Shown: in pieces, positions 5,016 to 39,527 of the stretch
How positions within the stretch are numbered: position 1 is the stretch's first letter
How the letters are laid out: each line of letters begins with the position of its first letter
Virus genome (UHGV): UHGV-1472620
Source: a virus
Reading direction: 5' to 3' (one strand)
DNA length: 39,677 nt
Translations under genes and position numbers: made by a program
Notes under the pieces: generated by a model
Seen by the model: only the letters and a program-made list of their open reading frames with translations
Database searches by the model: none
Told to the model about the DNA's origin: nothing

Positions 5016-5030
5016 TTACCTTTCAGGTAA
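5016..5030. promoter_or_regulatory. Operator-like palindrome TTACC-N5-GGTAA
   Basis: TTACCTTTCAGGTAA, about 75 bp upstream of ATG 5107. Confidence 0.55.
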
Positions 5031-5106
5031 TTTGCAAAACGTGCTGGATAGCAAACAAATTATTTGCTACTGTATAAATATACAGTTATTGCATGGAGAA
5101 GATAAG

Positions 5107-5364
5107 ATGCAGCGGTATCACTATCCACTGGAAGACGGATTTACCGAAAGGATTCACACGCCGGGAGGCGTCAGGTCACTGGTGGAGGGATCGCACTTGA
5201 TGAAATTACTCCGGGATCTCGATAAGGATGGATTTAATGTCGATGGCCCACTTGCCGAACTGACTGCACTGATTAACTACGTCACCAGCTCACAGATGTC
5301 TATGCAGGATCTGCAAACACATCTCGACTATTGTGCCGAACAATTACGAAAACAAACCACATAA
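5107..5364 (+). CDS. Stand-alone paralog of the antirepressor C-terminal domain
   Basis: RIHTPGGVRSLVEGSHLMKLLRDLDKDGFNVDGPLAELTALINY...DLQTHLDY aligns with C-terminus of Bro-N protein 6819-7511; start chosen downstream of the operator. Confidence 0.5.
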   Translation: MQRYHYPLEDGFTERIHTPGGVRSLVEGSHLMKLLRDLDKDGFNVDGPLAELTALINYVTSSQMSMQDLQTHLDYCAEQLRKQTT

Positions 5365-5370
5365 AGAAAA

Positions 5371-5386
5371 GGCCGCGAAAGCGGCC
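5371..5386. terminator. Hairpin GGCCGCGAAAGCGGCC between convergent genes
   Basis: Perfect 6-bp GC stem with GAAA loop between stops at 5364 and 5388; identical hairpin at 8716-8731. Confidence 0.55.
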
Positions 5387-5387
5387 A

Positions 5388-5894
5388 TTAACAGTCGTAA
5401 AATTCTGGGTCCCACAAACTTGCATCGCGCGGCATGGATTCTAACTTTTTCAGCCGCAAAATTCTGTCACACTCGACAACTAATTTTTGCTTCTGCTCGT
5501 CAATTTCTACTGTCTTATGCGCTGGTTCATCCCAATAATCCAGAAGGAAGGCATGGCGTTCAGATGTGACCAGATAAATCACATACACGTCACTGGTTGG
5601 GATCTTTTTATGCTTGTTAGTGGTCTTGTCTTTCTTCCCAGACGCCCAGTTTTTCCAGCATTGTTCCGTACCGCTCTCACCAAACTTGTCAGTATAGTTT
5701 CCGATGTTTAAGTGAACGTGGCGTATGTGATATTCCAGCATCTCTTTCGGTGGATCTCGAAACAGAGTGTCCTTTCCGAAATCCTTATGATGACCGTAGC
5801 GCCAGTGATCTATGAACGCGTTTTTGATAGGTATTAGCTCAGGGTCCTTCCCAAAAATTCCAGGGTGAACCAACCCCTGGAATTTATTCGGCAT
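5388..5894 (-). CDS. Toxin-like protein A, paralog of 7954-8466 (possible YafO-like family)
   Basis: Shares HWRxGHH, GKDTLF, VHxNIG, CTEQCW and YWDxPAH motifs with protein B; ATG overlaps upstream partner stop by 11 nt. Confidence 0.6.
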   Translation of the reverse strand: MPNKFQGLVHPGIFGKDPELIPIKNAFIDHWRYGHHKDFGKDTLFRDPPKEMLEYHIRHVHLNIGNYTDKFGESGTEQCWKNWASGKKDKTTNKHKKIPTSDVYVIYLVTSERHAFLLDYWDEPAHKTVEIDEQKQKLVVECDRILRLKKLESMPRDASLWDPEFYDC

Positions 5895-6399
5895 CGTCGT
5901 AGAGCTCCTGAGCCATGTCTTCAGCAGTGCGTGCAAACATCCTTCGAGAAATTGCATGCGATTTTTCAACAGACATCTTTGGTACTTCTCGCATTACAAC
6001 CTCATGTGACGCTGTAGGCTTAAAAGATGACTTATAATACCGCTTTATCATCTCAACTAATTGCTGCTTATCCTTGGAGCGTCCAGTTTCGATTAGCCTT
6101 GACTCGTAAGGTCGCATTATATTCGTTTGACATGAGGCACGATGAAGCTTATCTGCCAAGATTCCTTCAAAAGATGTGCCCCGGATTTTTAACAATGCCT
6201 CATGCTGGTCGTATTCAGTGATGAACATAACCGGGTATTTTTGCTCAACTTCTTCATCATGAATCCTGATGGCATTGGCAGTTGCTATGGCAGCAGCATA
6301 AGCGGCTGCTTCAATCACCATCTTTTTCTCTTTTTCTTTTTCAGACTTTTTCAAGGTCAAGCGTCTATGCCTCATCGCTGCAACTCTCTTCGTGTTCAT
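5884..6399 (-). CDS. Upstream partner of protein A (antitoxin-like), basic N-terminus and acidic C-terminus
   Basis: Overlaps A start; ends ELYDDAE; track ORF starts at TTG 6411, ATG at 6399 preferred. Confidence 0.5.
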   Translation of the reverse strand: MNTKRVAAMRHRRLTLKKSEKEKEKKMVIEAAAYAAAIATANAIRIHDEEVEQKYPVMFITEYDQHEALLKIRGTSFEGILADKLHRASCQTNIMRPYESRLIETGRSKDKQQLVEMIKRYYKSSFKPTASHEVVMREVPKMSVEKSHAISRRMFARTAEDMAQELYDDAE

Positions 6400-6536
6400 G
6401 GGCACCCCCAACTACCTCTAGGGTAAACATTCTATCGAAAGTATACGCATACTGGCAAAAAAATAGGCAGGCATTTTCTGAAATGGGATCAATCAAACCA
6501 CATAGGGTTGAAATAACGTGAGTTATGCATTTATTA

Positions 6537-6551
6537 TTACCTTTACGGTAA
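6537..6551. promoter_or_regulatory. Operator-like palindrome TTACC-N5-GGTAA
   Basis: TTACCTTTACGGTAA in divergent intergenic region between A' and Bro-N gene. Confidence 0.55.
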
Positions 6552-6818
6552 ATTTACATCGCACTCCTCTTGTGCCATAGTAATCGGGCACTGGCAAAAT
6601 CCAGTGCCGGGATTGGTCTCCCGGATTACTACAGAGGCACATATGCCGCATAAGCGGTTTTTTTATGTGTAAAGCGCACCTATTCTATGGTGGGCTGTGT
6701 GGGGGCACCGAAAGGTGCGCCGGGTTCCTTTGTAGCCGGTAAGACCAACTCTGCACAGTTCACCACCATCTGATTGGTCTCAGCGGTGGTGATTAACCTA
6801 ACTACAAAGGTGATCGCC

Positions 6819-7511
6819 ATGAATACCAAACCTTCCATCTTTTCCTTTGAGTCATCCTGCCAGATCCGTATGTTCATGATTGACGGAGAACCTTGGTTTG
6901 TCACCAAAGATGTGTGCAATGCTTTGAATATTGATGTTACACAAGCGAGAAAACTTGATAAAAAAGGCTGGAACAAAAAGGGGCTGTATTCAATACAGAC
7001 CCCTGGTGGAATACAAGAACTATCCATCGTTTCAGAATCAGGTCTCTACATCCTTATTCTGCGTTGCAAAGAGGCAATGACTGAGGGAACGAGAGCATTC
7101 AGATTTCTTGAATGGGTTACAGGTGAGGTTCTTCCTCAGATCCGCCGCACCGGAAGTTACATTAAAAACTCGCTCCCGCAGGAAGAACGCATAAAGATGG
7201 TTGCCGACCAGGTAGCCAACGCCACGGCGTCAGCAGTGATGCAGGCAATGAAGATAGAGAACAAAACCTACAGTGCCCCGCTGAAGCCCGGCTACCGCAG
7301 TCTGATTCATTCTCCGTCTGGTGTTCTCGGCCTGACGGAGAACTCACTGCTGATGAATCTGCTGAACCAGTTGCAGGACGACGGGCATGATGTATCGGGC
7401 GCGGCGGCGGAACTGACCACCATGTTCTGCTACATTGTCGGTGTGAGCAAATGCCTGCGTGATATCCAGACGCACGCGGAGTACATCAACGACAAGGCAG
7501 GGTTCTTCTGA
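6819..7511 (+). CDS. Antirepressor with N-terminal Bro-N domain
   Basis: N-terminal FESSCQIRMFMIDGEPWFVTKDVCNALNI ... SESGLYILILRCKE resembles Bro-N/Ant; AAGGTGA Shine-Dalgarno before ATG 6819. Confidence 0.75.
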   Translation: MNTKPSIFSFESSCQIRMFMIDGEPWFVTKDVCNALNIDVTQARKLDKKGWNKKGLYSIQTPGGIQELSIVSESGLYILILRCKEAMTEGTRAFRFLEWVTGEVLPQIRRTGSYIKNSLPQEERIKMVADQVANATASAVMQAMKIENKTYSAPLKPGYRSLIHSPSGVLGLTENSLLMNLLNQLQDDGHDVSGAAAELTTMFCYIVGVSKCLRDIQTHAEYINDKAGFF

Positions 7512-7583
7512 CGGGCGGTGGCACAGGGATGTGCCTTTAAATAATTCTGTACAGATTGCAGACCGGGGGTGAATAGCGTACTA

Positions 7584-7598
7584 TTACCTTAAAGGTAA
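7584..7598. promoter_or_regulatory. Operator-like palindrome TTACC-N5-GGTAA
   Basis: TTACCTTAAAGGTAA, 43 bp upstream of B' start. Confidence 0.55.
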
Positions 7599-7640
7599 AC
7601 CTGTTTTTATTTTATACCTGTAACTTACCGGAGATTAAAG

Positions 7641-7967
7641 ATGACAAAACTTGGATTCGTGATGAGAGGTCCGGTAAGAAGCGGAACTCATGCAAAGCGT
7701 AGCAAGAGTCGTATTTTTACTGGTAAGGTTGTAGCACGTAAATCAGCTATTGGCTCGTTCAATAGTGAAAATGCGGCATTGCGCCATATTTTTATCAGCA
7801 CAAAGCCAAGAGCATCCGCTGATGTGCATACAATGTCTATTCCTATCACAAAGAATATAAAGCGGATAAAAAAGCTCTCATCTGCAGAATCAAAAGAGAT
7901 ATCTTTCCGCCAGCTTAACTCATTAGAAACGCATATGAAGGAAGAGGAATTCGATGTTTTTGAGTGA
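7641..7967 (+). CDS. Upstream partner of protein B (antitoxin-like), basic N-terminus and acidic C-terminus
   Basis: 108 aa, ends KEEEFDVFE; stop overlaps B start by 14 nt; GGAG Shine-Dalgarno before ATG. Confidence 0.5.
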   Translation: MTKLGFVMRGPVRSGTHAKRSKSRIFTGKVVARKSAIGSFNSENAALRHIFISTKPRASADVHTMSIPITKNIKRIKKLSSAESKEISFRQLNSLETHMKEEEFDVFE

Positions 7968-8466
7968 GTATAGCGGGAAGGTTATACCTACTGGTGAGTT
8001 TAAAACTGATGACTTTCTGATTTCGCTAAAAGATGCTTTTAAACAACACTGGCGTCATGGTCATCATCCTGATCTGGGAAAAGATACTCTTTTTGAAAGA
8101 CCAGAGGAAGTATTAGGCTTCCATCTCAGAAAGGTTCATGTCAATATTGGTGAATATGCATCATATTCATACTCATGTACTGAACAGTGTTGGGATGAGT
8201 GGTCATATGGATTGATTGATGAACAAGGAAATTACAGGCCAAAACCAACCAGTAACGCATATCTCATATATGCAGTCAATGAAATAAGAGATGCAGCCTT
8301 ACTAGCTTATTGGGACCCGCCCGCACACACCAAAGCTAACGCAAAAGTTTGGATGGATTCCGTATTGAATTTCACAAAATTATTTCATGAACGAACGAAT
8401 ACAGCTCCACTTAGTAGAAATGTTTATCCGTGGGATTATTCGTACAAATCCAAAAAGCCTGCATAG
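7954..8466 (+). CDS. Toxin-like protein B, paralog of 5388-5894 (possible YafO-like family)
   Basis: Motifs shared with A (see above); strong GAAGGAAGAGGA Shine-Dalgarno; AT-rich coding region. Confidence 0.6.
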   Translation: MFLSEYSGKVIPTGEFKTDDFLISLKDAFKQHWRHGHHPDLGKDTLFERPEEVLGFHLRKVHVNIGEYASYSYSCTEQCWDEWSYGLIDEQGNYRPKPTSNAYLIYAVNEIRDAALLAYWDPPAHTKANAKVWMDSVLNFTKLFHERTNTAPLSRNVYPWDYSYKSKKPA

Positions 8467-8547
8467 TAGTTTTTTATGGACGAAACAAAAGTCAGTGCTA
8501 CACTCATTGACGCCACATTGAGGTGGTTTATAGATGGAAATTTCACA

Positions 8548-8709
8548 ATGAAAAAAGCATTTGCTGCACTGTTCGTTTTGTTGTCTCTGGTAGCTTCAAC
8601 TCAGGCCTTTGCCGGTCGTTGTCAGCACGACAGCGATACTGCCGCTGACGGCTCCCGCTGCGGTGGGCGTTCTGCGGATTCCCGCCCGGGCGGCGGTGGC
8701 ATTCGTTAA
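8548..8709 (+). CDS. Small secreted peptide (signal peptide plus about 30-aa Cys/Gly-rich mature part)
   Basis: MKKAFAALFVLLSLVASTQAFA signal-like N-terminus; track ORF begins at 8476 but signal peptide favours 8548; weak Shine-Dalgarno. Confidence 0.35.
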   Translation: MKKAFAALFVLLSLVASTQAFAGRCQHDSDTAADGSRCGGRSADSRPGGGGIR

Positions 8710-8715
8710 AAACAA

Positions 8716-8737
8716 GGCCGCGAAAGCGGCCTGTTTG
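8716..8737. terminator. Hairpin GGCCGCGAAAGCGGCC plus T-tract
   Basis: Same hairpin as 5371-5386, followed by TGTTTG; sits between convergent stops 8709 and 8739. Confidence 0.6.
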
Positions 8738-8738
8738 A

Positions 8739-9590
8739 TCACTGTGCAGTTTTCGCTGATCGATTTTCAGCTCTAAATTCAAGAACCGTTTCAATATTTC
8801 TTTCCTTCAGCATATCAATAACATTTTTATTCATTTGACTATCACTGGTTAATAACTGGTAAACGTTGCTTCTCTCTTTATCAGAGTTTTCTTTAACAGC
8901 TGCTTTGCATGCCAAATGCTTATTGAAATTTTCTACATCGCTAGTACAGGAATTTACGGCTGCTGATGAAATATCAGACGCTGAAGAAACACCATCATCC
9001 AAACGTTTTATAGCATTTTCTATACATGAGTTAAGGGAATAAACGACAACTGAGCGATACCCTTCAGACGCACACCATTCTAAATTTCTTGAAGGATCGA
9101 GTGGTTTTACTTCGCTGGATTGAATTAACTTGTCAAAAACTGACTTATATTCAATCTGTTTTTTATCTATAGCCCATACTTCAGTAGCTGATTTATAATT
9201 CCCCGTATGCCTATTAACATCAAATCCATGCTTTATAAGCAAATCTGCCCATGAAAGATTTATTGATTCATTGTTATGAGGCCATTTTCCTGTCAGAACC
9301 GCCCCCATAGACCCCATATATCCGCCATATGATGGTATAGCACCATGGCTCAGTAACTTCTCAGCAACCACAGGGCAATTAATTACATAAGAGGCGTAAA
9401 GCCCATTCCATAAAGCCCCTCTATAGTAATCGCCACGATTAGGTTCTTTTAAGTCGATAGCCTTTGATAATTGTTCACACGTTTTGCATGCATCAAAGTT
9501 ATCCTTATTGCATTGCAATGAACTGGCAGCTGTAGGATTTACAGAGACTATTGAAAGCACTATGCCAAAAAACAAATTTATTTTTTTCAT
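8739..9590 (-). CDS. Secreted or periplasmic protein of unknown function
   Basis: N-terminal signal peptide MKKINLFFGIVLSIVSVNPTAASS; AT-rich; start abuts stop of 1129-aa virion protein (TAGGATG). Confidence 0.6.
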   Translation of the reverse strand: MKKINLFFGIVLSIVSVNPTAASSLQCNKDNFDACKTCEQLSKAIDLKEPNRGDYYRGALWNGLYASYVINCPVVAEKLLSHGAIPSYGGYMGSMGAVLTGKWPHNNESINLSWADLLIKHGFDVNRHTGNYKSATEVWAIDKKQIEYKSVFDKLIQSSEVKPLDPSRNLEWCASEGYRSVVVYSLNSCIENAIKRLDDGVSSASDISSAAVNSCTSDVENFNKHLACKAAVKENSDKERSNVYQLLTSDSQMNKNVIDMLKERNIETVLEFRAENRSAKTAQ

Positions 9591-9591
9591 C

Positions 9592-20991: not shown

Positions 20992-21042
20992 CTTCTTTCT
21001 CCATTAGTGGGTCTGTTACGATCCACAGGTTAATAACAGGCG

Positions 21043-24728: not shown

Positions 24729-24935
24729 TTACTGACCAAGCAGCGTTTTACCGCTGGTATTAGCGGTTGATGTGTCGCCCTGAGAACCGGTAAGCAGCGT
24801 AGAACTACGACCAGCAGCAGCGCGACGGCGACGAGTTTCTTCGTCTCGGGCATCAACAACGGCGGAATCCTGCTCCTGTGGTGCTGCCTGAACTTCTGGT
24901 GTTGCAGGCACTGATGGTGAGCTACCCATGCACAT
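24729..24935 (-). CDS. Small ORF upstream of portal
   Basis: 68-aa ORF ending 15 nt before portal ATG; low complexity. Confidence 0.3.
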   Translation of the reverse strand: MCMGSSPSVPATPEVQAAPQEQDSAVVDARDEETRRRRAAAGRSSTLLTGSQGDTSTANTSGKTLLGQ

Positions 24936-25025: not shown

Positions 25026-25040
25026 TTACCCTTCGGGTAA
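25026..25040. promoter_or_regulatory. Operator-like palindrome TTACC-N5-GGTAA
   Basis: TTACCCTTCGGGTAA upstream of portal/head operon. Confidence 0.5.
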
Positions 25041-26084: not shown

Positions 26085-27560
26085 TTAAGCATAGGGATCG
26101 TAATCTGTGATGGCCTTGCCTTGCTGGTTCTGCTGACCGGGAATTCGCAGACGCTTCGACACAGGGAACGCAAACGTCAGCAGTAGCGCATCGCCTTTAC
26201 CAGGAGAACGCCCAAGCCGCTCTTTGATATCTTCCTTCGGTTCGATAACGATTTTACCGTCCACTCGAACTTTGTACTCTGCCGCCGACAGGTCGTCCGC
26301 TGTTTCATGGTCATCCAGCATGCCGCCAAGCCTCAGCCATGTCTTGCATGAGTTGAACATCTCCCCACGCTTGTTGAGCATCTGCGGGTCAGTAGACGCG
26401 CCACCGAACGGAACAAGTTGCCATGTACGACCCCAGCCGTCACCGATTGACTTCAAACCGGTTCCGTAACCAAAGTCGATGAACACCGCGTCAGCCTGAT
26501 ACTGGTCTTCAAAGTCAGCGATACGCTTCGCCATAATCAGATCGTCGGTAGTCTTGTTTCCAGTCCACAGCACCTTACTGTGTAGCCCCTGCCGCAGGTA
26601 TATCACAGCGTCATCAACGCCGGAGTATGCCGGGTCAACGCCGATTATCACCGGAGCATGTGCAACCTGCGCAGCGGTTACCACCCGTTTTATTGCCTCG
26701 TCAGTAAGACCGGTAGGGATAAACTGCAATTCAGATGCATCAGGGAATATGCCACGCACACGGATTTTAACGAAGTCGCTGTCTTCCCCGTAGTCATCAA
26801 CCCATTTCTGCAACTGCTGTTTGTTGGTACCTTCCACCGTCCGACTGTCAATCTGCGCAGTTTTCCAGCGGTGTTTATACTTGCGGAAACATTCACGGAA
26901 ACGTCCGGTATTACGCGTCGGGTTTCCGAACGCCACCCAGATAATCTCAGTGTCTTCGTCCGTTAGCGCACCCTCGGCAACTTCCCACACCAGATCCGCA
27001 ATGTTCGACGCTTCATCGAATACCACGATGATGCGTTTGCGCTCATTGTGTAATCCGGCGAATGCCTCAGTGTTGTGCTCAGACCAGGGGATTGCGTCAG
27101 CTCGCCACCGCTTGTCGTGCCCAGGGTCATTGCTGTACATCGCGGTAGCGGTACAGGTAAACCAGTCTTTCGTGATAGCAAGGTTCGACCACTTGATAAT
27201 TTCCGGCCAAGTCTTCGTTCGTAGCTGGTTGTCGGTGTTGGCGGTCACCACGACCTTACAATCCTCGCAAGTGGACATGCCCCAGTTGATCAGCATTGAG
27301 ATGAATGCGGATTTACCAATACCGTGACCAGAAGCGCGTGCCAGCATAAGCGGCTGATAGCGCGTCTCTGGATTCTGCAGGTGATCACGTATCTCTCGGA
27401 ACGCATCAGCCTGCCACTGACGTGGGCCGGTGGCATGTGCCAGTTCAGTCCCCTCTTCCCCCCACGGGAACGCATAGAGGGCATAGCCAAGCGGATCGTG
27501 AGTGAACCCTGCAATATCTTCGATTAACTGCTCTTCAGGAGATAACACTGCATCTGTCAC
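26085..27560 (-). CDS. Terminase large subunit
   Basis: 491 aa, Walker A-like GHGIGKS, overlaps terS stop. Confidence 0.9.
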   Translation of the reverse strand: MTDAVLSPEEQLIEDIAGFTHDPLGYALYAFPWGEEGTELAHATGPRQWQADAFREIRDHLQNPETRYQPLMLARASGHGIGKSAFISMLINWGMSTCEDCKVVVTANTDNQLRTKTWPEIIKWSNLAITKDWFTCTATAMYSNDPGHDKRWRADAIPWSEHNTEAFAGLHNERKRIIVVFDEASNIADLVWEVAEGALTDEDTEIIWVAFGNPTRNTGRFRECFRKYKHRWKTAQIDSRTVEGTNKQQLQKWVDDYGEDSDFVKIRVRGIFPDASELQFIPTGLTDEAIKRVVTAAQVAHAPVIIGVDPAYSGVDDAVIYLRQGLHSKVLWTGNKTTDDLIMAKRIADFEDQYQADAVFIDFGYGTGLKSIGDGWGRTWQLVPFGGASTDPQMLNKRGEMFNSCKTWLRLGGMLDDHETADDLSAAEYKVRVDGKIVIEPKEDIKERLGRSPGKGDALLLTFAFPVSKRLRIPGQQNQQGKAITDYDPYA

Positions 27561-28153
27561 TGATTACCATCCTGACGTTCTTTGAGTCGCTTCCTGGCTG
27601 CCGCTATGCGATCAGCAATTGTCACATTCACATTAACATCCAGGCGCTCTTTGAACGCGTTGACGTCGACGTGCTTACCGATAAGCTCGAGGTTCTTCAC
27701 CTTGTCAGGCCATTTAATTTTTTTGAGGATTGTCTCTATCGAATCCTCGTTCATGTTCATGATGGTCGATGACAGATCAAAGCCGCTAAGCGTAGTGCGC
27801 CAGATTTTCGGCCACTCGCGGATTGGCTTAAGGCTCCCATCGTCGTTGAGGATGTCGATCACGTCCATCTGGTCGATCTCCACCAGGCGCATGAGAACGT
27901 AATCAGCACTGACGCGCATTCGTTTGTTGCGCTCCTCCATCAGCTCGGCAATCCGTTTTTGAATGCGTTCATCGCGCATCATGACACTGGCTTTAACTGC
28001 CGCTGTATTTGGGGAGAATCCTGCGTTAATCGCTGCCTGAGTCTGGTTTTCAGGCGTTTTGATGTATGACTGGCAATAAGCCTCCTGCATTGCTGTTAGT
28101 GGCTTAAATTGCGTTGATTTGCGTTTATAGGTTTTAGGTTCAGCAGGCATCAT
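27557..28153 (-). CDS. Terminase small subunit
   Basis: Upstream of and overlapping terL; start placed at ATGATG 28153 rather than the TTG 28231 used by the ORF track. Confidence 0.7.
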   Translation of the reverse strand: MMPAEPKTYKRKSTQFKPLTAMQEAYCQSYIKTPENQTQAAINAGFSPNTAAVKASVMMRDERIQKRIAELMEERNKRMRVSADYVLMRLVEIDQMDVIDILNDDGSLKPIREWPKIWRTTLSGFDLSSTIMNMNEDSIETILKKIKWPDKVKNLELIGKHVDVNAFKERLDVNVNVTIADRIAAARKRLKERQDGNQ

Positions 28154-28194
28154 AACCACCGTGGTAATAGTTACCGTTGTGGTAATAGTACCAT

Positions 28195-28222
28195 GCAAAA
28201 TAAAGCCGCCATAGTTGGCGGC
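28195..28222 (-). terminator. Intrinsic terminator upstream of terS (tR'-like)
   Basis: On minus strand GCCGCC-AACTAT-GGCGGC followed by TTTATTTTG. Confidence 0.5.
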
Positions 28223-28263
28223 AGTATTCAAAACCCATCAAATTCATCATGCATAATCTACTC

Positions 28264-28275
28264 GTGACATGTCAC
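28264..28275. promoter_or_regulatory. Perfect 12-bp palindrome GTGACATGTCAC (late promoter / regulator site candidate)
   Basis: Identical to 25999-26010; contains GTGACA -35-like hexamer on both strands. Confidence 0.5.
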
Positions 28276-28613
28276 ACTATTAATTTCGTTTCATGCCAGC
28301 CTTTAGTCACCCAGCATTGCGAGTCACCATTACACGGGCATGAATTAACGGGAACTCTCTCGCCGCACTTACCGCAAAGTTTTCTGCTGATCGATTTTAT
28401 ACGCCCGCGCACACGTGCATCATCCTGGCGGATCAGCAGCGCGATGTACTCGGCCATTTCATAGGGATCGCGACTAGGGCGCCGGGCGGCGCAGTTCCGC
28501 GCCAGCATTTCAATTTCCTGAGCATCAAGCACAATTTCCAGCTTACACACACCAGATGCAGCTTGTCTGGCTCTCTGAGCGGCTTTGCGCTCTGCTGCTG
28601 ATTTAGCCATCAA
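28272..28613 (-). CDS. Small Cys-rich protein, candidate late-gene regulator (Q-like antiterminator?)
   Basis: 113 aa, C-terminal CGKCG ... CPCNGDSQC zinc-ribbon-like cluster; last early gene before terS. Confidence 0.4.
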   Translation of the reverse strand: MMAKSAAERKAAQRARQAASGVCKLEIVLDAQEIEMLARNCAARRPSRDPYEMAEYIALLIRQDDARVRGRIKSISRKLCGKCGERVPVNSCPCNGDSQCWVTKGWHETKLIV

Positions 28614-29527: not shown

Positions 29528-29528
29528 A

Positions 29529-30743: not shown

Positions 30744-31088
30744 TCAGAACTCTTCGATGTTCCAGCCACCACCTGCTTTCTTTGGTTTAACCGTTACCCC
30801 GATGATTCGGAACGGATACTGATCTGCGGCGACTTTGGTTTTCACCCTGGCGTCGTCGGTCCAGAAACCTTTCACTTCGTGCAGTTCCATCTCGCCGGTG
30901 GCGAGCATCACAGCAAAATCTGGCGTATAGAACGTGTTGTCAGCTAACCGCAGCTTGATACCCTCAAATCGATACCAGACGATTTCTCCTGCACGTTTAC
31001 GCAACTCAAGGTGCTGGCAATACGCAGATTCTGTTTTGTTCATCTGGCCTGTTTTGAGTCGACCAAGAGCCTGTATCTGTTTTCTCAT
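30744..31088 (-). CDS. PD-(D/E)xK nuclease-like protein (VRR-NUC / DUF1064-like)
   Basis: YTPDF ... ELHEVKG motif arrangement; downstream of replication genes. Confidence 0.5.
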   Translation of the reverse strand: MRKQIQALGRLKTGQMNKTESAYCQHLELRKRAGEIVWYRFEGIKLRLADNTFYTPDFAVMLATGEMELHEVKGFWTDDARVKTKVAADQYPFRIIGVTVKPKKAGGGWNIEEF

Positions 31089-31153
31089 AATTTACCCCTG
31101 AGGTAATTAAAAACCACATAAGACACGAAATCAATAGAGTTTAGAATACTTTG

Positions 31154-31168
31154 TTACCCAGAAGGTAA
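31154..31168. promoter_or_regulatory. Operator-like palindrome TTACC-N5-GGTAA
   Basis: TTACCCAGAAGGTAA between P-like gene and nuclease-like gene. Confidence 0.5.
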
Positions 31169-31205: not shown

Positions 31206-32006
31206 TTACTTGATAAATCCTGCCGCCTTTCCCCGCCTGTATTCCTCCATCAGCCACTGTGCCGGTGTTATTCCCCCCAATGTGGCGGCGTTAGGCATAC
31301 ACCCGAAACTTCGCCCTGGTGGATGGTAAACGTCTCTCCCTGTGTCCGGAGGCGTACTCATGGGTTCTGGCTTTGCCTGTATGCTGATCACCGGATCGGG
31401 TATCTGCTGTCCGGAAGCTACCTTTTTCGCCCAATCATCGAGCAGCCTGCGCGCGTGTTTCTCAACCTCAATCTCGCTAAGCTGGCGCTGATACATTGCA
31501 CGGCGGGTATCACATACGACCCAGTACATAACCGGATGTCGCCACGGGAATCTTTCGGGACCACCAGGATATAAACTTTTTTCCTTGCTGTACCGGTGAA
31601 ACTCCGCCATCACATCGTCAATGGTGACGCCAAGAACCATCTTGCTGTCTTTACACCACTTGATGAATTGCCCTGGCGACGGCCAGAACGGAGATTCACT
31701 GGCGCGGGCGTGGCGCATACCAGCAGAAACCTGTTCACGGGTTCGGATCCCCCCTTCGGCAAACGCAGCAATCCACTGCTGTTTTGCAGCAACTTCCTGC
31801 TCTGGAGTCTTCAGGTTGGTTACTACTGCCGCCGGAAACAGTTGTTTCAGCTGTTTGAAAAGGGCATCAACAAGCCTCTCTGCTGACATGTTCACCACAT
31901 TGTCATTGTTGACGTACTGATGCTCATAACCTGACATGCGAGAAAGGGCTTCTCCGTCACGGTTTTGTATCGCGGTAAAAACGTTGTTCACAAGAAATCC
32001 TCCCAC
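31206..32006 (-). CDS. Replication protein P-like (helicase loader)
   Basis: REQVSAGMRHARASESPFWPSPGQFIKWCK aligns with lambda P (EQVNAGMRVARRQNRPFLPSPGQFVAWCR) as recalled. Confidence 0.75.
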   Translation of the reverse strand: MGGFLVNNVFTAIQNRDGEALSRMSGYEHQYVNNDNVVNMSAERLVDALFKQLKQLFPAAVVTNLKTPEQEVAAKQQWIAAFAEGGIRTREQVSAGMRHARASESPFWPSPGQFIKWCKDSKMVLGVTIDDVMAEFHRYSKEKSLYPGGPERFPWRHPVMYWVVCDTRRAMYQRQLSEIEVEKHARRLLDDWAKKVASGQQIPDPVISIQAKPEPMSTPPDTGRDVYHPPGRSFGCMPNAATLGGITPAQWLMEEYRRGKAAGFIK

Positions 32007-32803
32007 GCTTCAGGGCTGTTCCAGTGCGGAACGTTGTTATCAGGTAATGTTGATTGCTTCTGTCTGCTAATCTGCAGCCGCCTTGCCAGCTTCTGCTCCC
32101 ACTGTGCCTGATGGTATGCCTTACCCTCAGCCATCCAGTAAATTCTGAACTCTGCAAGCTCCTGTGCCGTTGGCAGACTGTCCAGGTAGATCCCCTGCAA
32201 TGAGCTTTTCCGAAGAAAGTCATCTGATGGCTGCCATTGTTCATGCATGACAAATTTGCCTAATTGCCCTGGCCCACCAGGAGGAACAAAGTTATTCATC
32301 ACGGCGTTGTTTGCGCCGGGGTCATGAGGCACAGAATCCCCGCTTTTTGTCCTGCTCTCCCTCTCTTGGTTAAATGACTGGTTATATGACTGGTTCTGGA
32401 TCCCGTTTTTGGGATCATTCAACATCCCGTTTTTGGGATCATTCAACATCCCGTTTTTGGGTATATTCCCGTTTTCGGTAACATTACCGTTTTCGGGTTC
32501 ATTACCCCCTTCCCGGTTGCCTTTAATGTTCCCGTTTTTGGTTATATTAAGAGAGAAAACCCGCACTCTTTTCGTCGCACCCTTTCTCTCTCCGGTATCT
32601 GAAATAAGCCCCATTTTCATGAGCGATATAAGCCCGGCCTGCACGGTTTTTTTATTCAGGCAAGTGTCTTTAACGAGGCGTTCTATGCTGGGGTAGCAGA
32701 GGTTATATTCATCGGCTCTGTCAGCCATCGAGAGCAGTATGAGCTTTAATGACGAGCTACCTGGATCTGTCTCCCAGGCCCAATCTGTTGCATGTCTGCT
32801 CAT
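31988..32803 (-). CDS. Replication initiator O-like
   Basis: N-terminal HTH-like domain, Asn-rich repeat linker encoded by the iterons, then C-terminal domain; immediately upstream of P-like gene. Confidence 0.7.
   Translation of the reverse strand: MSRHATDWAWETDPGSSSLKLILLSMADRADEYNLCYPSIERLVKDTCLNKKTVQAGLISLMKMGLISDTGERKGATKRVRVFSLNITKNGNIKGNREGGNEPENGNVTENGNIPKNGMLNDPKNGMLNDPKNGIQNQSYNQSFNQERESRTKSGDSVPHDPGANNAVMNNFVPPGGPGQLGKFVMHEQWQPSDDFLRKSSLQGIYLDSLPTAQELAEFRIYWMAEGKAYHQAQWEQKLARRLQISRQKQSTLPDNNVPHWNSPEAWEDFL
32373..32550. repeat. Origin of replication iterons inside O-like gene
   Basis: Direct repeats TCCCGTTTTTGGGATCATTCAACA x2 (32401-32448) plus at least four degenerate CCGTTTT(T/C)GG copies and ATGACTGGTT x2. 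Confidence 0.75.
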
Positions 32804-32818
32804 GATTAATCTCCGCTA

Positions 32819-33019: not shown

Positions 33020-33099
33020 GGTAAGCCCTGTTATTAGTATTGGGATTACGGTCATTTTGTGCTGACACAAAAAAAAGATCAACCAGATTTGGTTTTTTA

Positions 33100-33114
33100 T
33101 TACCTTTGAGGTAC
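33100..33114. promoter_or_regulatory. Operator-like palindrome (one mismatch)
   Basis: TTACCTTTGAGGTAC. Confidence 0.4.
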
Positions 33115-33169
33115 GAATAGATATGAAAAGACCGCCGGATGGCGGTCTACAGAGGGTTGTGGATGGATA

Positions 33170-33400
33170 TCATGAGTAGAAGAAGTATGCCAGTTCTGCT
33201 TTTGAGCGCAGCCATTGTCTTGTTTTACAGGCTTTAAAAAGCCCATTCATCAATACCTTACCTGGCATTTTGCGCTTACCTGTTAAGTGAGTCTGGATAT
33301 AGTGACTCGTCGTTCCGGCTTCCTGTGCGAAGGCTTCACGCTCATCCGGAGTAAGTGCAAGCCAGTGCTTTTTGAAATCGAAATGTCCGTTATCGCTCAT
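33170..33400 (-). CDS. Cro-like regulator
   Basis: 76-aa ORF divergent from repressor; first gene of minus-strand early operon. Confidence 0.5.
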   Translation of the reverse strand: MSDNGHFDFKKHWLALTPDEREAFAQEAGTTSHYIQTHLTGKRKMPGKVLMNGLFKACKTRQWLRSKAELAYFFYS

Positions 33401-33436
33401 AGCTATTGCCTGATATTTATTTCAGATAATAAATAT

Positions 33437-33499
33437 TCACCCATAAGGTAACAAAAATCAAGGATAGTTACCTATGAGGTGCATTTACCTGTTGGGTAA
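33437..33499. promoter_or_regulatory. Immunity region operators (three sites)
   Basis: TCACCCATAAGGTAA, TTACCTATGAGGTGC and TTACCTGTTGGGTAA between divergent Cro-like and repressor genes. Confidence 0.65.
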
Positions 33500-33554
33500 T
33501 ATTGCTTTAAATTGAATCATCTACTGATTCATATATGAGGCGATTTTCCAGAAA

Positions 33555-34139: not shown

Positions 34140-34159
34140 AACTATATTTTTCAGTAAGT

Positions 34160-34186
34160 AAGCCGCCTCATGGCGGCTTTTTTATT
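34160..34186 (+). terminator. Intrinsic terminator after repressor gene
   Basis: AAGCCGCC-TCAT-GGCGGCTT then TTTTATT. Confidence 0.7.
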
Positions 34187-34196
34187 GCCAGATAGA

Positions 34197-34273
34197 TTAC
34201 CTTACGGGTAATTTTTTTAACTCATATCTATTGACACCAAACCAAATAAGCATAATTATTACCTCAACGGTAA
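34197..34273. promoter_or_regulatory. Early-left promoter region with two operator palindromes
   Basis: TTACCTTACGGGTAA (34197-34211) and TTACCTCAACGGTAA (34259-34273) flanking a TTGACA -35-like hexamer at 34241. Confidence 0.55.
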
Positions 34274-34292
34274 CAGACCGAGGTAACAAGTT

Positions 34293-34445
34293 ATGCAGTG
34301 GAAAATCATCAACGGTTGGTACTGCGTTACTGCATGCGGATTCATGAGCTGGAAGTTCCGCACCTTACAGGAAGGCATTAAGTGGGCTTTCGTCAGCAAA
34401 GAAGCTCGCGATGTAGCCAACGATAATGAGATATGGGAGGGCTGA
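34293..34445 (+). CDS. Small ORF (50 aa), first gene of early-left operon
   Basis: GAGGT Shine-Dalgarno before ATG; stop 2 nt before next ATG; not in the ORF track. Confidence 0.3.
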   Translation: MQWKIINGWYCVTACGFMSWKFRTLQEGIKWAFVSKEARDVANDNEIWEG

Positions 34446-34447
34446 TA

Positions 34448-34747
34448 ATGAACGTTAATCAGCAGAAAAATCTTCAAAAAATCATGCTGGCATTCGACAA
34501 GGACTACCGCCTGTCAGAACAGCTATATGACCGACAAGTTGAACTGATTGAGAGCATCCGACTTCATCAACTGTCCTCAACTTTCGACGTTGTAACAGGC
34601 AAAGGCGTTCGTCAGGAAGTGCTGGAGGCTGCTAAAGACAGCCCTGAGTTCGAAGAACTGATGGATGCCTACCGGCGCGAGGCAATGGCAATTATAGCGC
34701 GCTGGGATCTGGCGGATCAGCTTGATGGGCAGAGGGACGCGGCATGA
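34448..34747 (+). CDS. Hypothetical early protein
   Basis: 100 aa from ATG 34448; overlaps exonuclease start. Confidence 0.45.
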   Translation: MNVNQQKNLQKIMLAFDKDYRLSEQLYDRQVELIESIRLHQLSSTFDVVTGKGVRQEVLEAAKDSPEFEELMDAYRREAMAIIARWDLADQLDGQRDAA

Positions 34748-35643: not shown

Positions 35644-35652
35644 GGAGAAAAA

Positions 35653-36675
35653 ATGTCTATCAATGCACTTAAGGCAGCGGCTACCGGTAACCAAGTTGCA
35701 CATCATAATGAGAAACCAACAACTCTGGCCGGACTTCTGGCAGACCCAAAAATTAAAGCTCAGATGGCTTTGGCACTTCCAAAGCACATGACAGCAGACC
35801 GTCTGGCGCGCATAGCAACCACAGAGATCAGAAAGGTTCCAAAACTTGCATCATGCGACCAAGCCAGCTTCCTGGGGGCAATTATGCAATGTGCCCAATT
35901 GGGTCTTGAACCAGGCGGAGCTCTTGGACACGCTTACCTGATACCGTTCGACAAACGCCAGAAAGTAAATGGAAGATGGGAAACCGTATCTACAGAAGCA
36001 CAGCTGATTATCGGCTATCGCGGAATGATTGACCTTGCCCGCCGCTCTGGGCAGATCCTGAGTATCTCGGCTCGTACCGTACATACAAACGACAAATTCA
36101 GCTACTCATACGGCCTGGAAGAAACGCTCGAGCATTTACCTTGCGAAACAGGTGACCGCGGAGAATTAACGCACGTTTACGCCGTTGCACGACTGAAAGA
36201 TGGCGGAGTCCAATTTGAAGTTATGAGCCGGGCAGACGTTGAGAAAGTTCGTGCACTGAGCAAAGCCGGTAGCAGTGGCCCATGGGTTGATCACTTCGAT
36301 GAGATGGCTAAAAAAACAGTAATTCGCCGACTGTTCAAATATCTTCCTGTTTCTATTGAAATGCAGAAGGCTGTTGTTATGGATGAGCGCGCTGAAGCTG
36401 GACTTAGCCAAGATAACGCAGCTGTTATCACTGGTGAATATTCCGTAGTTGACGATGAGCGTCAACACCTGTCGCCAATTTCAGATTCAGAACGAGAAGA
36501 AGCTCGAGAATATATCATCGCGATACTTAATAGCCTGGATCCATCTGCTGAAGATGCAAAAACGATGTTCAAGCGCGCTGAAAATGAAATTAACACCATG
36601 GCTGAAAAGCTCGGTGATGAATATCACCAAAAATTCATGATGACGCTTAACGATATGCGTCCAGAATTCGAGTAA
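35653..36675 (+). CDS. recT: RecT-family single-strand annealing protein
   Basis: 340 aa with RecT-like N-terminal region; paired with exonuclease. Confidence 0.8.
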   Translation: MSINALKAAATGNQVAHHNEKPTTLAGLLADPKIKAQMALALPKHMTADRLARIATTEIRKVPKLASCDQASFLGAIMQCAQLGLEPGGALGHAYLIPFDKRQKVNGRWETVSTEAQLIIGYRGMIDLARRSGQILSISARTVHTNDKFSYSYGLEETLEHLPCETGDRGELTHVYAVARLKDGGVQFEVMSRADVEKVRALSKAGSSGPWVDHFDEMAKKTVIRRLFKYLPVSIEMQKAVVMDERAEAGLSQDNAAVITGEYSVVDDERQHLSPISDSEREEAREYIIAILNSLDPSAEDAKTMFKRAENEINTMAEKLGDEYHQKFMMTLNDMRPEFE

Positions 36676-36724
36676 CCACCACCGCGGCGCCACGTGCGCC
36701 GCACTGCAACCAAGAGAGGTATTC

Positions 36725-36973
36725 ATGAAAGGTGCATTAGGTAAGAAAGAACTCCTGGCGGTGGTGCCACTGTCATGGAGCACTATCGACCGTATGGAGC
36801 GCGCAGGGGAATTTCCTAAACGCTGGTATATCACCGATAAACGCTGCGCATGGAACCGTGATGAAGTTGAGCGTTGGCTTGATGAACGTCAGGCAGCAAG
36901 CCCGGCAGAGTTCCAGGGTAAAAAGCCTCCTGTTCAGCAACGTGTATATCGTCCCGTGAGCAACGCTGCATGA
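36725..36973 (+). CDS. AlpA/excisionase-like HTH regulator
   Basis: 82 aa; GEFPKRWYITDKRCAWNRDEVERWL pattern; GAGAGG Shine-Dalgarno. Confidence 0.55.
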   Translation: MKGALGKKELLAVVPLSWSTIDRMERAGEFPKRWYITDKRCAWNRDEVERWLDERQAASPAEFQGKKPPVQQRVYRPVSNAA

Positions 36974-37082
36974 GTGCGCTGCTAAGGCACTGGAGCAAAT
37001 GGTCAGGATGGTACTTATTCCTGGCCTCTGTTTCAGCATGGCTTTATCTGCTGGCATTAATTTTCAGAGAGGGTTGGATTAA

Positions 37083-37382
37083 GTGAGAAAGTTAAGCCGA
37101 CTTGAAAAATATCACATGAATAAGGTTTCAATGCGCAGTCCGTCAAAGATTGTCGCCGTTACTCCTGCGGCGATAGAGATCGAAAAACGCGCGATTGAAA
37201 GAGAGAAAAAAGGGCAATTCCGCATTGCCGCTCACCTTTGGCTTCAGTGTATGGATGTTGCTTCTGGTGATGTTGAACGTGCAAGGATCGCGGTTCGCAG
37301 GGACCAATGTATCACAAAAGGTAACGGCCTTCGCCGTGGCGACTATAGCGGCATAGGATGTTGTGGGGTGGTTTATGACTAA
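37083..37382 (+). CDS. Hypothetical protein
   Basis: 99-aa ORF ending at methylase start. Confidence 0.35.
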   Translation: MRKLSRLEKYHMNKVSMRSPSKIVAVTPAAIEIEKRAIEREKKGQFRIAAHLWLQCMDVASGDVERARIAVRRDQCITKGNGLRRGDYSGIGCCGVVYD

Positions 37383-38025
37383 GAAATACACACTAATCTA
37401 TGCAGATCCACCCTGGGTATACCGGGACAAAGCCGCAGATGGTAATCGCGGTGCCGGTTTTAAATATCCGGTTATGAGTGTGCTGGATATCTGCCGCCTT
37501 CCTGTGTGGGATTTGGCCGATGAAAACTGTCTGTTGGCCATGTGGTGGGTGCCAACACAACCACTCGAAGCACTAAAAGTTGTTGAAGCCTGGGGATTCC
37601 GTCTGATGACGATGAAGGGCTTCACGTGGATAAAATGTGGTAGTCGACAACCAGATAAACTGGTTATGGGTATGGGACACATGACTCGCGCCAATAGTGA
37701 AGATTGCCTGTTTGCGGTAAAGGGAAAACTACCTACGCGCATTAATGCAGGGATCGTTCAGTCATTTACCGCACCGCGGCTTGAGCATTCAAGAAAGCCA
37801 GATATCGTTCGTGAAAAACTTGTGCAATTATTAGGCGATGTTTCTCGCATTGAACTGTTCGCCCGCCAGACGTCTCATGGCTTCGATGTTTGGGGTAATC
37901 AGTGCGAAGACCCGGCAGTGCAACTACACCCTGGATACGCGTTGGATATTGGCGGATTAACAAATGCATTCAGCAATGCTCCGCTGTCACCAACAGACAT
38001 CCAGGGGCGGGAGCGTGCTGCATGA
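37363..38025 (+). CDS. MT-A70-family DNA N6-adenine methyltransferase
   Basis: Catalytic DPPW motif (IYADPPWVY) near N-terminus. Confidence 0.8.
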   Translation: MGWFMTKKYTLIYADPPWVYRDKAADGNRGAGFKYPVMSVLDICRLPVWDLADENCLLAMWWVPTQPLEALKVVEAWGFRLMTMKGFTWIKCGSRQPDKLVMGMGHMTRANSEDCLFAVKGKLPTRINAGIVQSFTAPRLEHSRKPDIVREKLVQLLGDVSRIELFARQTSHGFDVWGNQCEDPAVQLHPGYALDIGGLTNAFSNAPLSPTDIQGRERAA

Positions 38026-38216
38026 ACAGGGCATCACCAGCAGATTTAAGAAAATGCCTTGAAACTGCAAACATGCTTGCACACAGCGGGATCAGGTTTG
38101 TTCCAATTCCCGCTGTCACTGATGCTGAATTTGCAACACTGTCAGCAATATTCGAAAACAAAATTGAATCACTGGCAGCAGAAGCAGAGATGGAAGAAAA
38201 TCAGCAGAACTATTAA
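38022..38216 (+). CDS. Small hypothetical protein
   Basis: ATGA overlap with methylase stop; 64 aa. Confidence 0.35.
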   Translation: MNRASPADLRKCLETANMLAHSGIRFVPIPAVTDAEFATLSAIFENKIESLAAEAEMEENQQNY

Positions 38217-38219
38217 ACG

Positions 38220-39470
38220 TTATTCCCCCGCCATCCACTTCTCAAACTTCGACGGGGAGAACGGAATCAGATCCGTATGCTCCCCGTCAATCCATGAATC
38301 AATCATATCGGCCCACTGCTGCAACATGTAGGCGCGCTGTCTGGCGTATTCCGCTTTGTTATATACGGCGCGCACACCTTTCTGCTCATGTGCCAGAGCC
38401 TTTTCAATCCAGTCTGAAGGATAACCAGCCTCATGCAACAACGTACTGGCTGTACGGCGCATATCATGTACAGTGAAGTCCTGAATATGCTCACCATCTT
38501 CATTTATTATTTTCACCGTTCTGTCGATCAGAGAGTTCAGCGCGGCATTAGATAATGGCTTCCGGATATTGTAACGACCAGGAACCAGATATTCACTTCC
38601 ACCAGCGCACATCTGCAACCCGACCAATATATCCTGTGCCTGTTTAGGCAGGTAAATAACGTGCGCCCGGCTTCCCTTCATGCGGTCTGGAGGAATTGTC
38701 CATGTCCATTTTTTAAAATCTATTTCATCCCACGTTGCATTGGTGAATTCGCCCTTACGAACCATAGTGATAAGCACCAGTTTTAAAGCCATTTTCATAG
38801 TGCCCATAGCACCAATGGCATCCAGCGTGCGGAAGAACAGGCCAATTTCTTCTGGTGTCAGTGTTCGCTCTCGTGGTTTAAATATGGCGATAGACGAAGG
38901 TTTAATGTCAGCCGCAGGATTAAACAAACCATGACCACGGTCATTGGCGTGACGGTATACGCTACTGATGATCTCCCTGGCCTGCACTGCTGTTGCCCGG
39001 CCACCGCGTTCGACAATCCGGTCACACAAATCACGAACCATCGATGTGGTAATTTCAGCCATCATTTTATTGCCAAGAACCGGAAGTATGTCACGGTCGA
39101 TCACCGCCTGTTTCATTGCGCGGGTACTGTCAGCCAGGATGACGTGTTTCATATAACTGTCGGTATGTACCGCAAACGTCTCGGCACCACGAATCTTTTT
39201 GATACCGTCACGTTTAGCCGCAGCCGGTGACTGGCCTGCTTTAAGCAGCTTCTTTGCAGCAATCAGTTCTTCTCGCGCTTCTGCCAGGCTGATACCGTCA
39301 CGCCCATACTGCCCGATTACCAGTGTTTCGCGGCGACCGTTGATACGGTAGTCATAGCGAAACGAGACCGTGCCTGACGTAAGCACAGCTACATACAGCC
39401 CGTCACGATCGGAAACCTTGTACAGTTTGTCCTGCGGCTTGAGGTTTTTTAATTTTGTATCGGTAAGCAC
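38220..39470 (-). CDS. int: Tyrosine integrase
   Basis: 416 aa; C-terminal HDMRRT and downstream Tyr region typical of phage integrases; adjacent to attR. Confidence 0.9.
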   Translation of the reverse strand: MLTDTKLKNLKPQDKLYKVSDRDGLYVAVLTSGTVSFRYDYRINGRRETLVIGQYGRDGISLAEAREELIAAKKLLKAGQSPAAAKRDGIKKIRGAETFAVHTDSYMKHVILADSTRAMKQAVIDRDILPVLGNKMMAEITTSMVRDLCDRIVERGGRATAVQAREIISSVYRHANDRGHGLFNPAADIKPSSIAIFKPRERTLTPEEIGLFFRTLDAIGAMGTMKMALKLVLITMVRKGEFTNATWDEIDFKKWTWTIPPDRMKGSRAHVIYLPKQAQDILVGLQMCAGGSEYLVPGRYNIRKPLSNAALNSLIDRTVKIINEDGEHIQDFTVHDMRRTASTLLHEAGYPSDWIEKALAHEQKGVRAVYNKAEYARQRAYMLQQWADMIDSWIDGEHTDLIPFSPSKFEKWMAGE

Positions 39471-39512
39471 AATTCACCCGTATAGAAACCATTTTCATGA
39501 CGGCATGAGAGT

Positions 39513-39527
39513 ATACCTTTAAGGTAA
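39513..39527. promoter_or_regulatory. Operator-like palindrome upstream of int (one mismatch)
   Basis: ATACCTTTAAGGTAA about 45 bp upstream of int ATG. Confidence 0.45.

Follow-up and report, generated by a model that had tools for sequence, protein, structure and literature searches.

A palindrome dispersed over the promoter regions of a Uetakevirus prophage is very probably the operator of its SPC32H-type repressor, Rep

We analyzed the virus genome UHGV-1472620 (39,677 nucleotides; this whole stretch of DNA is termed the window), focusing on a 15-bp palindrome, TTACC-N5-GGTAA, that recurs across it, and on rep, the gene for a candidate repressor. The 17-bp att core sequence that was reported for phiV10, epsilon15, and ZX5 (PMC9782041) was found, as ATTGAGTGGGAATGATT on the minus strand, at positions 1 to 17 and again at positions 39661 to 39677. 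Since the att core sits at both ends, the window corresponds to exactly one integrated prophage, from attL to attR. Megablast placed it in Uetakevirus (the epsilon15/phiV10 group), with Escherichia phage EC.W1-9 as the closest record (98% identity over 82% of the first 25 kb), and its genes are ordered as in phiV10 and epsilon15, with the whole map reversed. The tailspike differs from those of the relatives and has the same orientation as the lysis genes, and there is no oac gene. The gene map, obtained by tblastn transfer from three annotated relatives (EC.W1-9, phiV10, and epsilon15), leaves 7.2% of the window intergenic. Comparisons covered six relatives (phiV10, epsilon15, SPC32H, Klebsiella phage BUCT711, Enterobacter phage Tyrion, and EC.W1-9), hence seven genomes with the window.

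We then scanned the window exhaustively for the palindrome, allowing mismatches, and compared the counts with those obtained from dinucleotide shuffles. We found 10 perfect copies where 0.01 were expected, 16 copies with at most one mismatch (0.64 expected), and 37 with at most two (11.1 expected). All of the perfect copies (starting at 5016, 6537, 7584, 25026, 28171, 31092, 31154, 33485, 34197, and 34259) lie in intergenic DNA (binomial P = 4e-12), as do five of the six one-mismatch copies (starting at 1787, 6412, 28153, 33100, 33437, and 39513; P = 1e-5). Only one of the 21 two-mismatch copies, that at 33468 in the OR cluster, is intergenic, so the other 20 look like background, although their number reaches the shuffle maximum (mean, 11.1). 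The copy at 1787 to 1801 is probably a chance match and no real operator, since it lies within a coding sequence, the gp23-like membrane-protein gene, and about 0.6 one-mismatch matches are expected randomly; an identical copy is present in EC.W1-9 at 32310. The real set consists of 16 sites across 10 intergenic regions. A preliminary description of this DNA had listed twelve positions, all of which indeed hold copies of the quality that it gave, none of them inside a confident coding region, but it missed two perfect copies (28171 and 31092) and three one-mismatch copies (6412, 28153, and 1787), and its "twelve promoter regions" must give way to the regions counted here. The scan against shuffles that it proposed yielded the excess given above and, instead of being equally dense in coding regions, the perfect copies are confined to the intergenic 7.2% of the window.

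The sites at 28153 and 28171 fall only in the mechanical open reading frame (ORF) for terS, which is over-extended. We place the actual start at ATG 28150 because the EC.W1-9 and epsilon15 annotations support it, together with the positions of the operator doublet and of the terminator. The phiV10 RefSeq record appears to begin terS (224 aa) 78 nt too early (window 28150 to 28231).

The palindrome is a feature of the whole genus. Among all 5-mer palindromes with spacers of 0 to 12, TTACC with a spacer of 5 was the top family in each of the seven genomes, with 8 to 11 perfect copies per genome, and the 68 perfect copies yielded the extended consensus A-TTACC-WWWWW-GGTAA-T, the central five positions being A/T rich. 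The RefSeq record of epsilon15 (NC_004775) contains seven dispersed features termed "protein_bind: repressor, lysogeny," all of which read ATTACC-N5-GGTAAT, as against a total of 15 copies in that genome, 11 perfect ones included, when a single mismatch is tolerated; a scattered epsilon15 operator, mentioned in the preliminary description, does therefore exist as an annotation. Keyword searches of the literature for the motif or for Uetakevirus operators retrieved nothing relevant, and what the ZX5 paper says of operators is speculation (PMC9782041). The motif and its assignment to the repressor are already public for epsilon15, and structures of the repressor family are already solved.

Table 1. 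Operator sites, associated promoters, and regulatory or accessory genes of the window
Feature	Position	Strand	Context
Operator, perfect	5016-5030		Between divergent tailspike (ATG 4911, minus) and ant (ATG 5107, plus); syntenic copy in 6/6 relatives
Operator, 1 mismatch	6412-6426		2 bp past predicted minus-strand promoter TTGCCA-18-TAGAAT; before accessory module 1
Operator, perfect	6537-6551		Predicted promoter TTGAAA-18-TATTAT ends on operator base 1 and would drive the C4-RNA/Bro-N cassette
Operator, perfect	7584-7598		50 bp before accessory module 2; -10-like TACTAT ends on operator base 1
Operator, perfect	25026-25040		98 bp upstream of gp3/portal (head) operon, which is on the minus strand; syntenic in 7/7 genomes
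Operator doublet	28153-28185		28171 perfect, 28153 with 1 mismatch, centers 18 bp apart; doublet kept in five relatives
nin-type early promoter cassette	31092-31168	minus	Distal operator 31154-31168; predicted -35 TTGATT, 17 bp, -10 TTTAAT
Operator, 1 mismatch (conserved GTACC arm)	33100-33114		Just past gp39 terminator, before gp40 and replication genes
OR cluster	33437-33499		OR1 33437-33451; OR2 33468-33482 (2 mismatches); OR3 33485-33499 (perfect)
PL cassette	34197-34273	plus	Distal operator 34197-34211; predicted -35 TTGACA 34231-34236, -10 AATTAT 34254-34259
int operator, 1 mismatch	39513-39527		50 bp before int (ATG 39470, minus); same imperfect site in 7/7 genomes
rep, SPC32H-type repressor, 194 aa	33555-34139	plus	N-terminal helix-turn-helix (HTH), middle HTH_3-like, and C-terminal domains
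Cro-like HTH gene (gp39 homologue)	33170-33400	minus	phrog_35 "transcriptional repressor," E = 5.6e-13
ant, small SPC32H-type antirepressor	5107-5364	plus	88% identity to SPC32H Ant, E = 5e-57
LexA (SOS) box, perfect, CTGTATAAATATACAG	5070-5085		21 bp before ant ATG
P1 immI-like RNA leader	6575-6770	plus	a1/b1 target and isrK-like element 6575-6664; C4 antisense RNA 6683-6770
Bro-N domain antirepressor-like gene	6819-7511	plus	PF02498, E = 2e-13
Accessory module 1	5388-6396	minus	phrog_1651 protein 5388-5894 and small partners; own putative Rep operator-promoter
Accessory module 2	7641-8709	plus	phrog_1651 protein 7954-8466 and small partners; own putative Rep operator-promoter

Evaluation of the genetic context of the sites (Table 1) revealed that they lie ahead of int, terS, the portal operon, the genes of both antirepressors, and the two accessory modules, as well as at PL, PR, and a promoter of the nin type. 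The preliminary description had proposed a single operator by which one repressor would govern immunity, integration, accessory, and some late functions, and the site map, together with the homology of Rep described below, lends this proposal support. The site map is syntenic in all of the genomes and comprises the terS doublet (18 bp), one portal-operon site, one or two ant/tailspike sites, the imperfect int site, one site past the gp39 terminator, a PL pair with a spacing of exactly 62 bp (63 bp in the Klebsiella phage), another pair with 62-bp spacing ahead of the nin-type genes (7/7 genomes), and a PR/PRM triplet with spacings of 17 and 30 to 31 bp. In the window, the centers of the OR triplet are 31 and 17 bp apart, and the same triplet is found in epsilon15, SPC32H, and phiV10. 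Syntenic copies of the site at 33100 lie at +337 bp in phiV10, EC.W1-9, and Tyrion, and EC.W1-9 also has a counterpart of the operator at 7584 (at 26831) and a site equivalent to that at 6412, located 125 bp from its partner operator. The lysis-promoter operator found in phiV10, epsilon15, SPC32H, and Tyrion is absent from the window (1934 to 2155 region).

We then aligned the two 62-bp cassettes (PL and nin) from all clades, using the operators as anchors. Both have the same order: a terminator, the distal operator, about 16 bp, a putative -35 box (ctaTTGAca), 17 bp, and a -10 box (AATTAT, GATTAT, or TTTAAT), the final T of which also opens the proximal operator. In the window, the -10 box thus ends on base 1 of the operator at 34259 to 34273 (PL), followed by an ATG at 34293, and on base 1 of that at 31092 to 31106 (nin), followed by the ATG of a DUF1064 gene at 31088. 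Cross-clade pairwise identity was 100% in the operator arms, 81 to 93% in the -35 region, and 81 to 89% in the -10 box, as against 27 to 60% in the operator spacers, roughly 40 to 60% in the promoter spacer and downstream DNA, and 37 to 72% in the upstream flanks.

Similar registers recur at other sites. Four calls of a promoter scanner coincide with operators, as they end at 34259 or 6537, abut 6412, or contain OR1, whose single-mismatch palindrome lies inside the predicted PR (TTGTTA-17-TATTAT); these calls are among the scanner's best matches, and their predicted register with the operators is a repressive one. The terS doublet is located between the early-right terminator and the terS start, and an extended -10-like sequence, TGgTACTAT, which is conserved in all genomes, ends on operator base 1, the register being the same at 7584. 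At int, the operator would fill the spacer of Pint, because the conserved "mismatch" GGTAT creates a -10 box (TATACT) with GTGACG as the -35 box. The right operator arm (GAGG, GGGG, or GGTGG) has a second role as ribosome-binding site both at terS and at the nin promoter, with the start codon no more than 3 to 4 nt on; GGTGG is the arm that serves as Shine-Dalgarno sequence in the terS doublet. Overall, the operator overlaps -10/+1 or fills the promoter spacer at PL, nin, PR, Pint, terS, 6412, 6537, and 7584. Expressed in helical turns, the 62-bp spacing amounts to about six and the 125-bp spacing to about twelve. These arrangements fit a model in which bound repressor occludes the promoter and one tetramer may hold two operators. 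The operator at 25026 lies upstream of a conserved core-promoter-like block, and no convincing core promoter could be assigned by consensus for PRM, the tailspike gene, or ant.

What protein binds the palindrome? Rep is a full-length homologue of the SPC32H repressor (PDB 5D50, E = 3.5e-42, residues 1 to 190 aligned to 2 to 197). According to a 2023 structural paper, the N-terminal HTH alone is the DNA-binding domain of Rep, the second, HTH_3-like domain serves dimerization, and the C-terminal domain combines p53-like tetramerization and looping with the binding of Ant; the paper describes the mechanism of the tetrameric SPC32H-type Rep as not extensively characterized (PMC9986798). SPC32H Rep is presented as a tetramer on palindromic DNA sites in a preprint (bioRxiv 10.1101/2021.09.07.459249). 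Hence, the "tandem-HTH repressor" named as the simplest candidate in the preliminary description is the one that our sequence comparisons favor, but of its two HTH domains only the first would contact DNA. Rep identity between the E. coli, Salmonella, and Klebsiella clades is 43 to 45%, and the N-terminal domain is the best conserved (54 to 56%). The putative recognition helix (N36-L-V-N-R-W41) and neighboring HTH residues are invariant across the three clades, matching the invariance of the operator half-site.

As additional support, we found the half-site outside the genus together with the Rep N-terminal domain. Pseudomonas phage PseuP_224 has an unrelated siphovirus backbone, and its cI shares only the N-terminal domain with Rep; four TTACC-N4-GGTAA sites, three perfect and one with one mismatch (10906, 10932, 11768, and 11807), bracket this cI, the half-site being that of Uetakevirus and the spacer one base shorter. 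In Moraxella phage Mcat9, similar sites (TTACY-N5-RGTAA) lie beside the homologue of that phage. In addition, the window has every sequence-level feature by which we define membership of the Uetakevirus Rep operator regulon: the palindrome, Rep with its recognition residues, the syntenic map, and Ant with its LexA box. On this evidence, we propose that the palindrome is very probably the operator of Rep, placed on nearly every promoter to silence the prophage; we infer from sequence that Rep is the ligand, as well as the exact promoters and the looping.

Several points weigh against this proposal. The promoter assignments are consensus matches only, and promoter-like matches overall are not enriched over shuffles. 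Direct repression is less certain at the portal, tailspike/ant, and gp40 sites, since the operator there lies upstream of the likely core promoter. The repressor-site annotation in the epsilon15 record is itself a prediction. Finally, conservation within the genus is higher for the Cro-like protein than for Rep (76% versus 43%), and the former could be the ligand by which the motif is constrained.

This last point is the basis of the most serious alternative, according to which the palindrome serves chiefly the Cro-like protein, or Cro and Rep use it on an equal footing in the manner of lambda, so that the constancy of the motif across the genus reflects a conserved Cro. The gene is divergent from rep with the OR triplet between them, and its product matches phrog_35, resembles the Rep N-terminal domain weakly in its HTH, and shares 76% identity and an identical HTH stretch with the epsilon15 homologue. 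However, the putative recognition helix of Rep is itself invariant, the half-site of PseuP_224 goes with a cI that has the Rep N-terminal domain, and the epsilon15 annotation gives the sites to the repressor. We therefore consider this alternative unlikely although it deserves attention, and it complements the assignment to Rep more than it competes with it: by analogy, the Cro-like protein is probably a second ligand of the same operators.

We also considered the gp49-like transcriptional regulator (28272 to 28610), which might act as a late-gene activator at the phage promoters. It matches phrog_536 ("transcriptional regulator"), is 75 to 92% identical across the genus, and is encoded immediately upstream of the terS doublet, and several late promoters are without a good -35 box. 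However, N15 and Yersinia phage vB_YenM_42.18 have a gp49-like homologue, no Rep, no perfect TTACC-N5-GGTAA, and no enrichment, whereas PseuP_224 and Mcat9 have TTACC-type sites and no gp49-like homologue. The half-site thus appears to track the Rep N-terminal domain, not the gp49-like regulator. Moreover, the densest clusters flank rep in a classical OL/OR layout and overlap early promoters. The presence/absence comparison (N15 and vB_YenM_42.18 versus PseuP_224) led us to reject the gp49-like regulator as the binder, and we grant it very little probability.

Equally improbable in our judgment is a conserved enterobacterial transcription factor of the host, exploited by the phages. That phages of E. 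coli, Salmonella, Klebsiella, and Enterobacter have one motif in common although their Reps diverge would be in line with such a factor, but the half-site, with a different spacer, is also found around the cI of a Pseudomonas phage, and the layout is that of a phage immunity region (OL/OR). To our knowledge, no E. coli factor has a TTACC-N5-GGTAA consensus. That the palindrome acts as an RNA or DNA hairpin (a terminator, processing, or packaging signal) is hardly credible and was rejected. It can fold into a 5- to 7-bp hairpin (-3.5 to -5.7 kcal/mol) and several copies adjoin terminators, but these weak stems lack U-tracts. Covariation between the arms is absent, their sequence being unchanged in all 68 perfect copies. 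The imperfect arms TCACC, GTACC, and GGTAT are conserved even though they disrupt pairing, and many copies are at or upstream of the predicted transcription start.

With Rep as the ligand of the palindrome, we propose the following mechanism. In the lysogen, dimers of the Rep N-terminal HTH domain would bind the palindromes and, as a tetramer has two DNA-binding units, Rep may hold two operators at once: the 62-bp pairs that bracket PL and the nin-type promoter, the adjacent pairs 17 to 18 bp apart at terS and OR2-OR3, and the 125-bp pair at the divergent accessory promoters. Because the operator overlaps -10/+1 or fills the spacer at most sites, bound Rep would exclude RNA polymerase, and terminators directly upstream would insulate each transcription unit. 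One protein could thereby directly silence recombination/excision, cro/replication, the nin-type genes, integrase, packaging, and head functions, as well as the two accessory modules and the C4-RNA/Bro-N antirepressor cassette. By homology, induction would begin when DNA damage takes LexA off the SOS box upstream of ant (LexA cleavage), so that Ant is made; Ant would then bind the C-terminal domain of Rep and disassemble the tetramer, and all operators would be freed together. During lytic growth, the Cro-like protein probably uses the same operators.

We compared this arrangement with known systems. Operators for the epsilon15 repressor were reportedly predicted by Kropinski and coworkers in 2007. 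The window shares with epsilon15 the identical palindrome (ATTACC-N5-GGTAAT), with syntenic copies at terS, portal, ant/tailspike, PL, and the nin promoter, and the same 62-bp pairs and OR triplet. It differs from epsilon15 in that its Rep is only 43% identical to that of epsilon15, that operators at 6412, 6537, and 7584 are added on accessory cassettes, and that the lysis-promoter operator is missing. The Rep-Ant lysis-lysogeny switch of SPC32H was reportedly described by Kim and Ryu (2013) and by Kim and coworkers (2016). Here, too, the likeness to SPC32H (PDB 5D50/5D4Z) is extensive, with a full-length Rep homologue, an Ant of 88% identity whose gene follows a LexA box, and a palindrome set that the SPC32H genome also has, whereas Rep identity is about 43 to 48% and the window has an extra P1 immI-like antirepressor cassette.

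Phages P1 and P7 offer another precedent, since the operators of their C1 repressor are numerous and dispersed, Op51 of the immI operon (c4 RNA, icd, ant) being one of them. As in P1, one repressor would act on many operators spread over the genome, each on a separate transcription unit, and a C4 antisense RNA/antirepressor cassette has one of the window operators (6537) at its promoter. An immI-type cassette, i.e., a putatively repressor-controlled promoter, a C4 antisense RNA, and an antirepressor gene, is indeed present in the window. However, an asymmetric 17-mer serves as operator in P1, which is a plasmid prophage of 94 kb, and C1 is, as far as known, unrelated to Rep. The C1 operator ATTGCTCTAATAAATTT had no match in the window with up to three mismatches, and the system, having no C1-type operator, is therefore not a member of the P1 family.

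Lambda CI binds cooperatively at OL and OR and loops the 2.4 kb between them. As in lambda, the window operators flank the repressor gene and overlap the predicted PL and PR, and a Cro-like gene is divergent from the repressor gene; cooperative binding by a higher oligomer would, by analogy, be a further likeness. In contrast to lambda, the operators are not confined to the immunity region and the implied loops are of about 62 bp around single promoters. We found no Pfam match to a Peptidase_S24 domain in Rep, only HTH_3/XRE-type matches, and its C-terminal half aligned to the oligomerization domains of the SPC32H protein. Unlike lambda CI, Rep would thus be inactivated via an antirepressor, as it has no S24 autocleavage domain. 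The "stoperators" bound by gp71 of mycobacteriophage L5 are asymmetric, orientation dependent, and often inside transcribed regions. The window resembles L5 in its many dispersed repressor sites, some of them just past terminators or at operon heads, but its sites are palindromic and 15 of 16 (at most one mismatch) are intergenic.

Current understanding is unchanged by these results, the operator being already predicted for epsilon15, but an anonymous repeat becomes a regulatory map in which ten promoter regions would be silent in the lysogen. Induction is expected to proceed via LexA, Ant, and Rep, not via repressor cleavage. The accessory modules and the second antirepressor cassette (C4-RNA/Bro-N) appear wired into the same circuit; since the accessory cassettes carry their own operator-promoter units, they would be silent in the lysogen, unlike classical morons. 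The genus provides a compact natural example of dispersed-operator immunity, and its strictly conserved 62-bp promoter-bracketing geometry is well suited to tests of repression by tetrameric Rep.

The specificity of the operator is constant across host genera at 43% Rep identity, plausibly because some 15 dispersed operators and Cro cannot covary. As about ten promoter regions carry operators, those of portable accessory cassettes among them, immunity specificity would not be swappable as a cassette. More tentatively, and with less than even confidence, we suggest that immunity specificity is frozen genus-wide and that this 39-kb podophage has a flat, P1-like design with one repressor on every promoter. 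If so, cross-immunity is predicted between phages of different host genera, and single Rep tetramers would clamp promoters via 62-bp micro-loops instead of acting through a lambda-style cascade.

The remaining observations concern the regulatory and accessory genes. Ant is conserved at 85 to 88% between clades, far above its target Rep (43%). The mechanical ant ORF (4984 to 5364) is over-extended. The operator at 5016 is 40 bp upstream of the LexA box, which is one of four perfect CTGT-N8-ACAG sequences in the window (0.49 expected). The other three, at 3890, 21013, and 25555, may not be LexA sites since their spacers are not AT rich; the copy at 21013 to 21028 falls in the short stretch that separates the gp8-like gene from the major capsid gene.

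The prophage has two antirepressor modules, as the P1 immI-like cassette with its Bro-N gene accompanies ant. In the RNA leader, Rfam recognized the C4 RNA (RF01695, 78.6 bits; gathering threshold, 45) and the isrK-like element (RF01394, 74.7 bits; gathering threshold, 50), the a1/b1 target (RF03163) scoring 39.9 bits, below gathering. The phrog_1651 proteins of the two accessory modules are paralogous, whereas their small partners differ. The preliminary description had called these modules toxin-like; the operators that it placed on them are present, but the only support for the label is a weak YafO_toxin match of the protein at 7954 to 8466, below the Pfam cutoff, and a PADLOC search of the modules for known defense systems gave no match.

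A second conserved palindrome, aaCCATATATGGtt, was noted at the tailspike, lysis, and gp40 promoters, 20 to 35 bp past the putative Rep operators, where a -35 box would be expected; for the window taken alone, it is not significant. It is located at 4978 to 4987 in the window and at 24738 and 33134 (L001), 24750 and 33751 (L002), 24828 (L003), and 26454, 34217, and 35387 (L005) in other genomes, and it may be a box for a late activator. The CCATATATGG box has one match in the window against 1.13 expected, which is not significant for the window alone, and is syntenically conserved across genomes. Lastly, three adjoining tandem-repeat arrays (periods of 12, 24, and 18) span 32367 to 32506 within the DnaT-like replication gene (31988 to 32803), the 24-mer ATCCCGTTTTTGGGATCATTCAAC being present in 2.6 copies with 100% identity. 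By analogy with lambda O, these arrays look like origin iterons inside an initiator gene.

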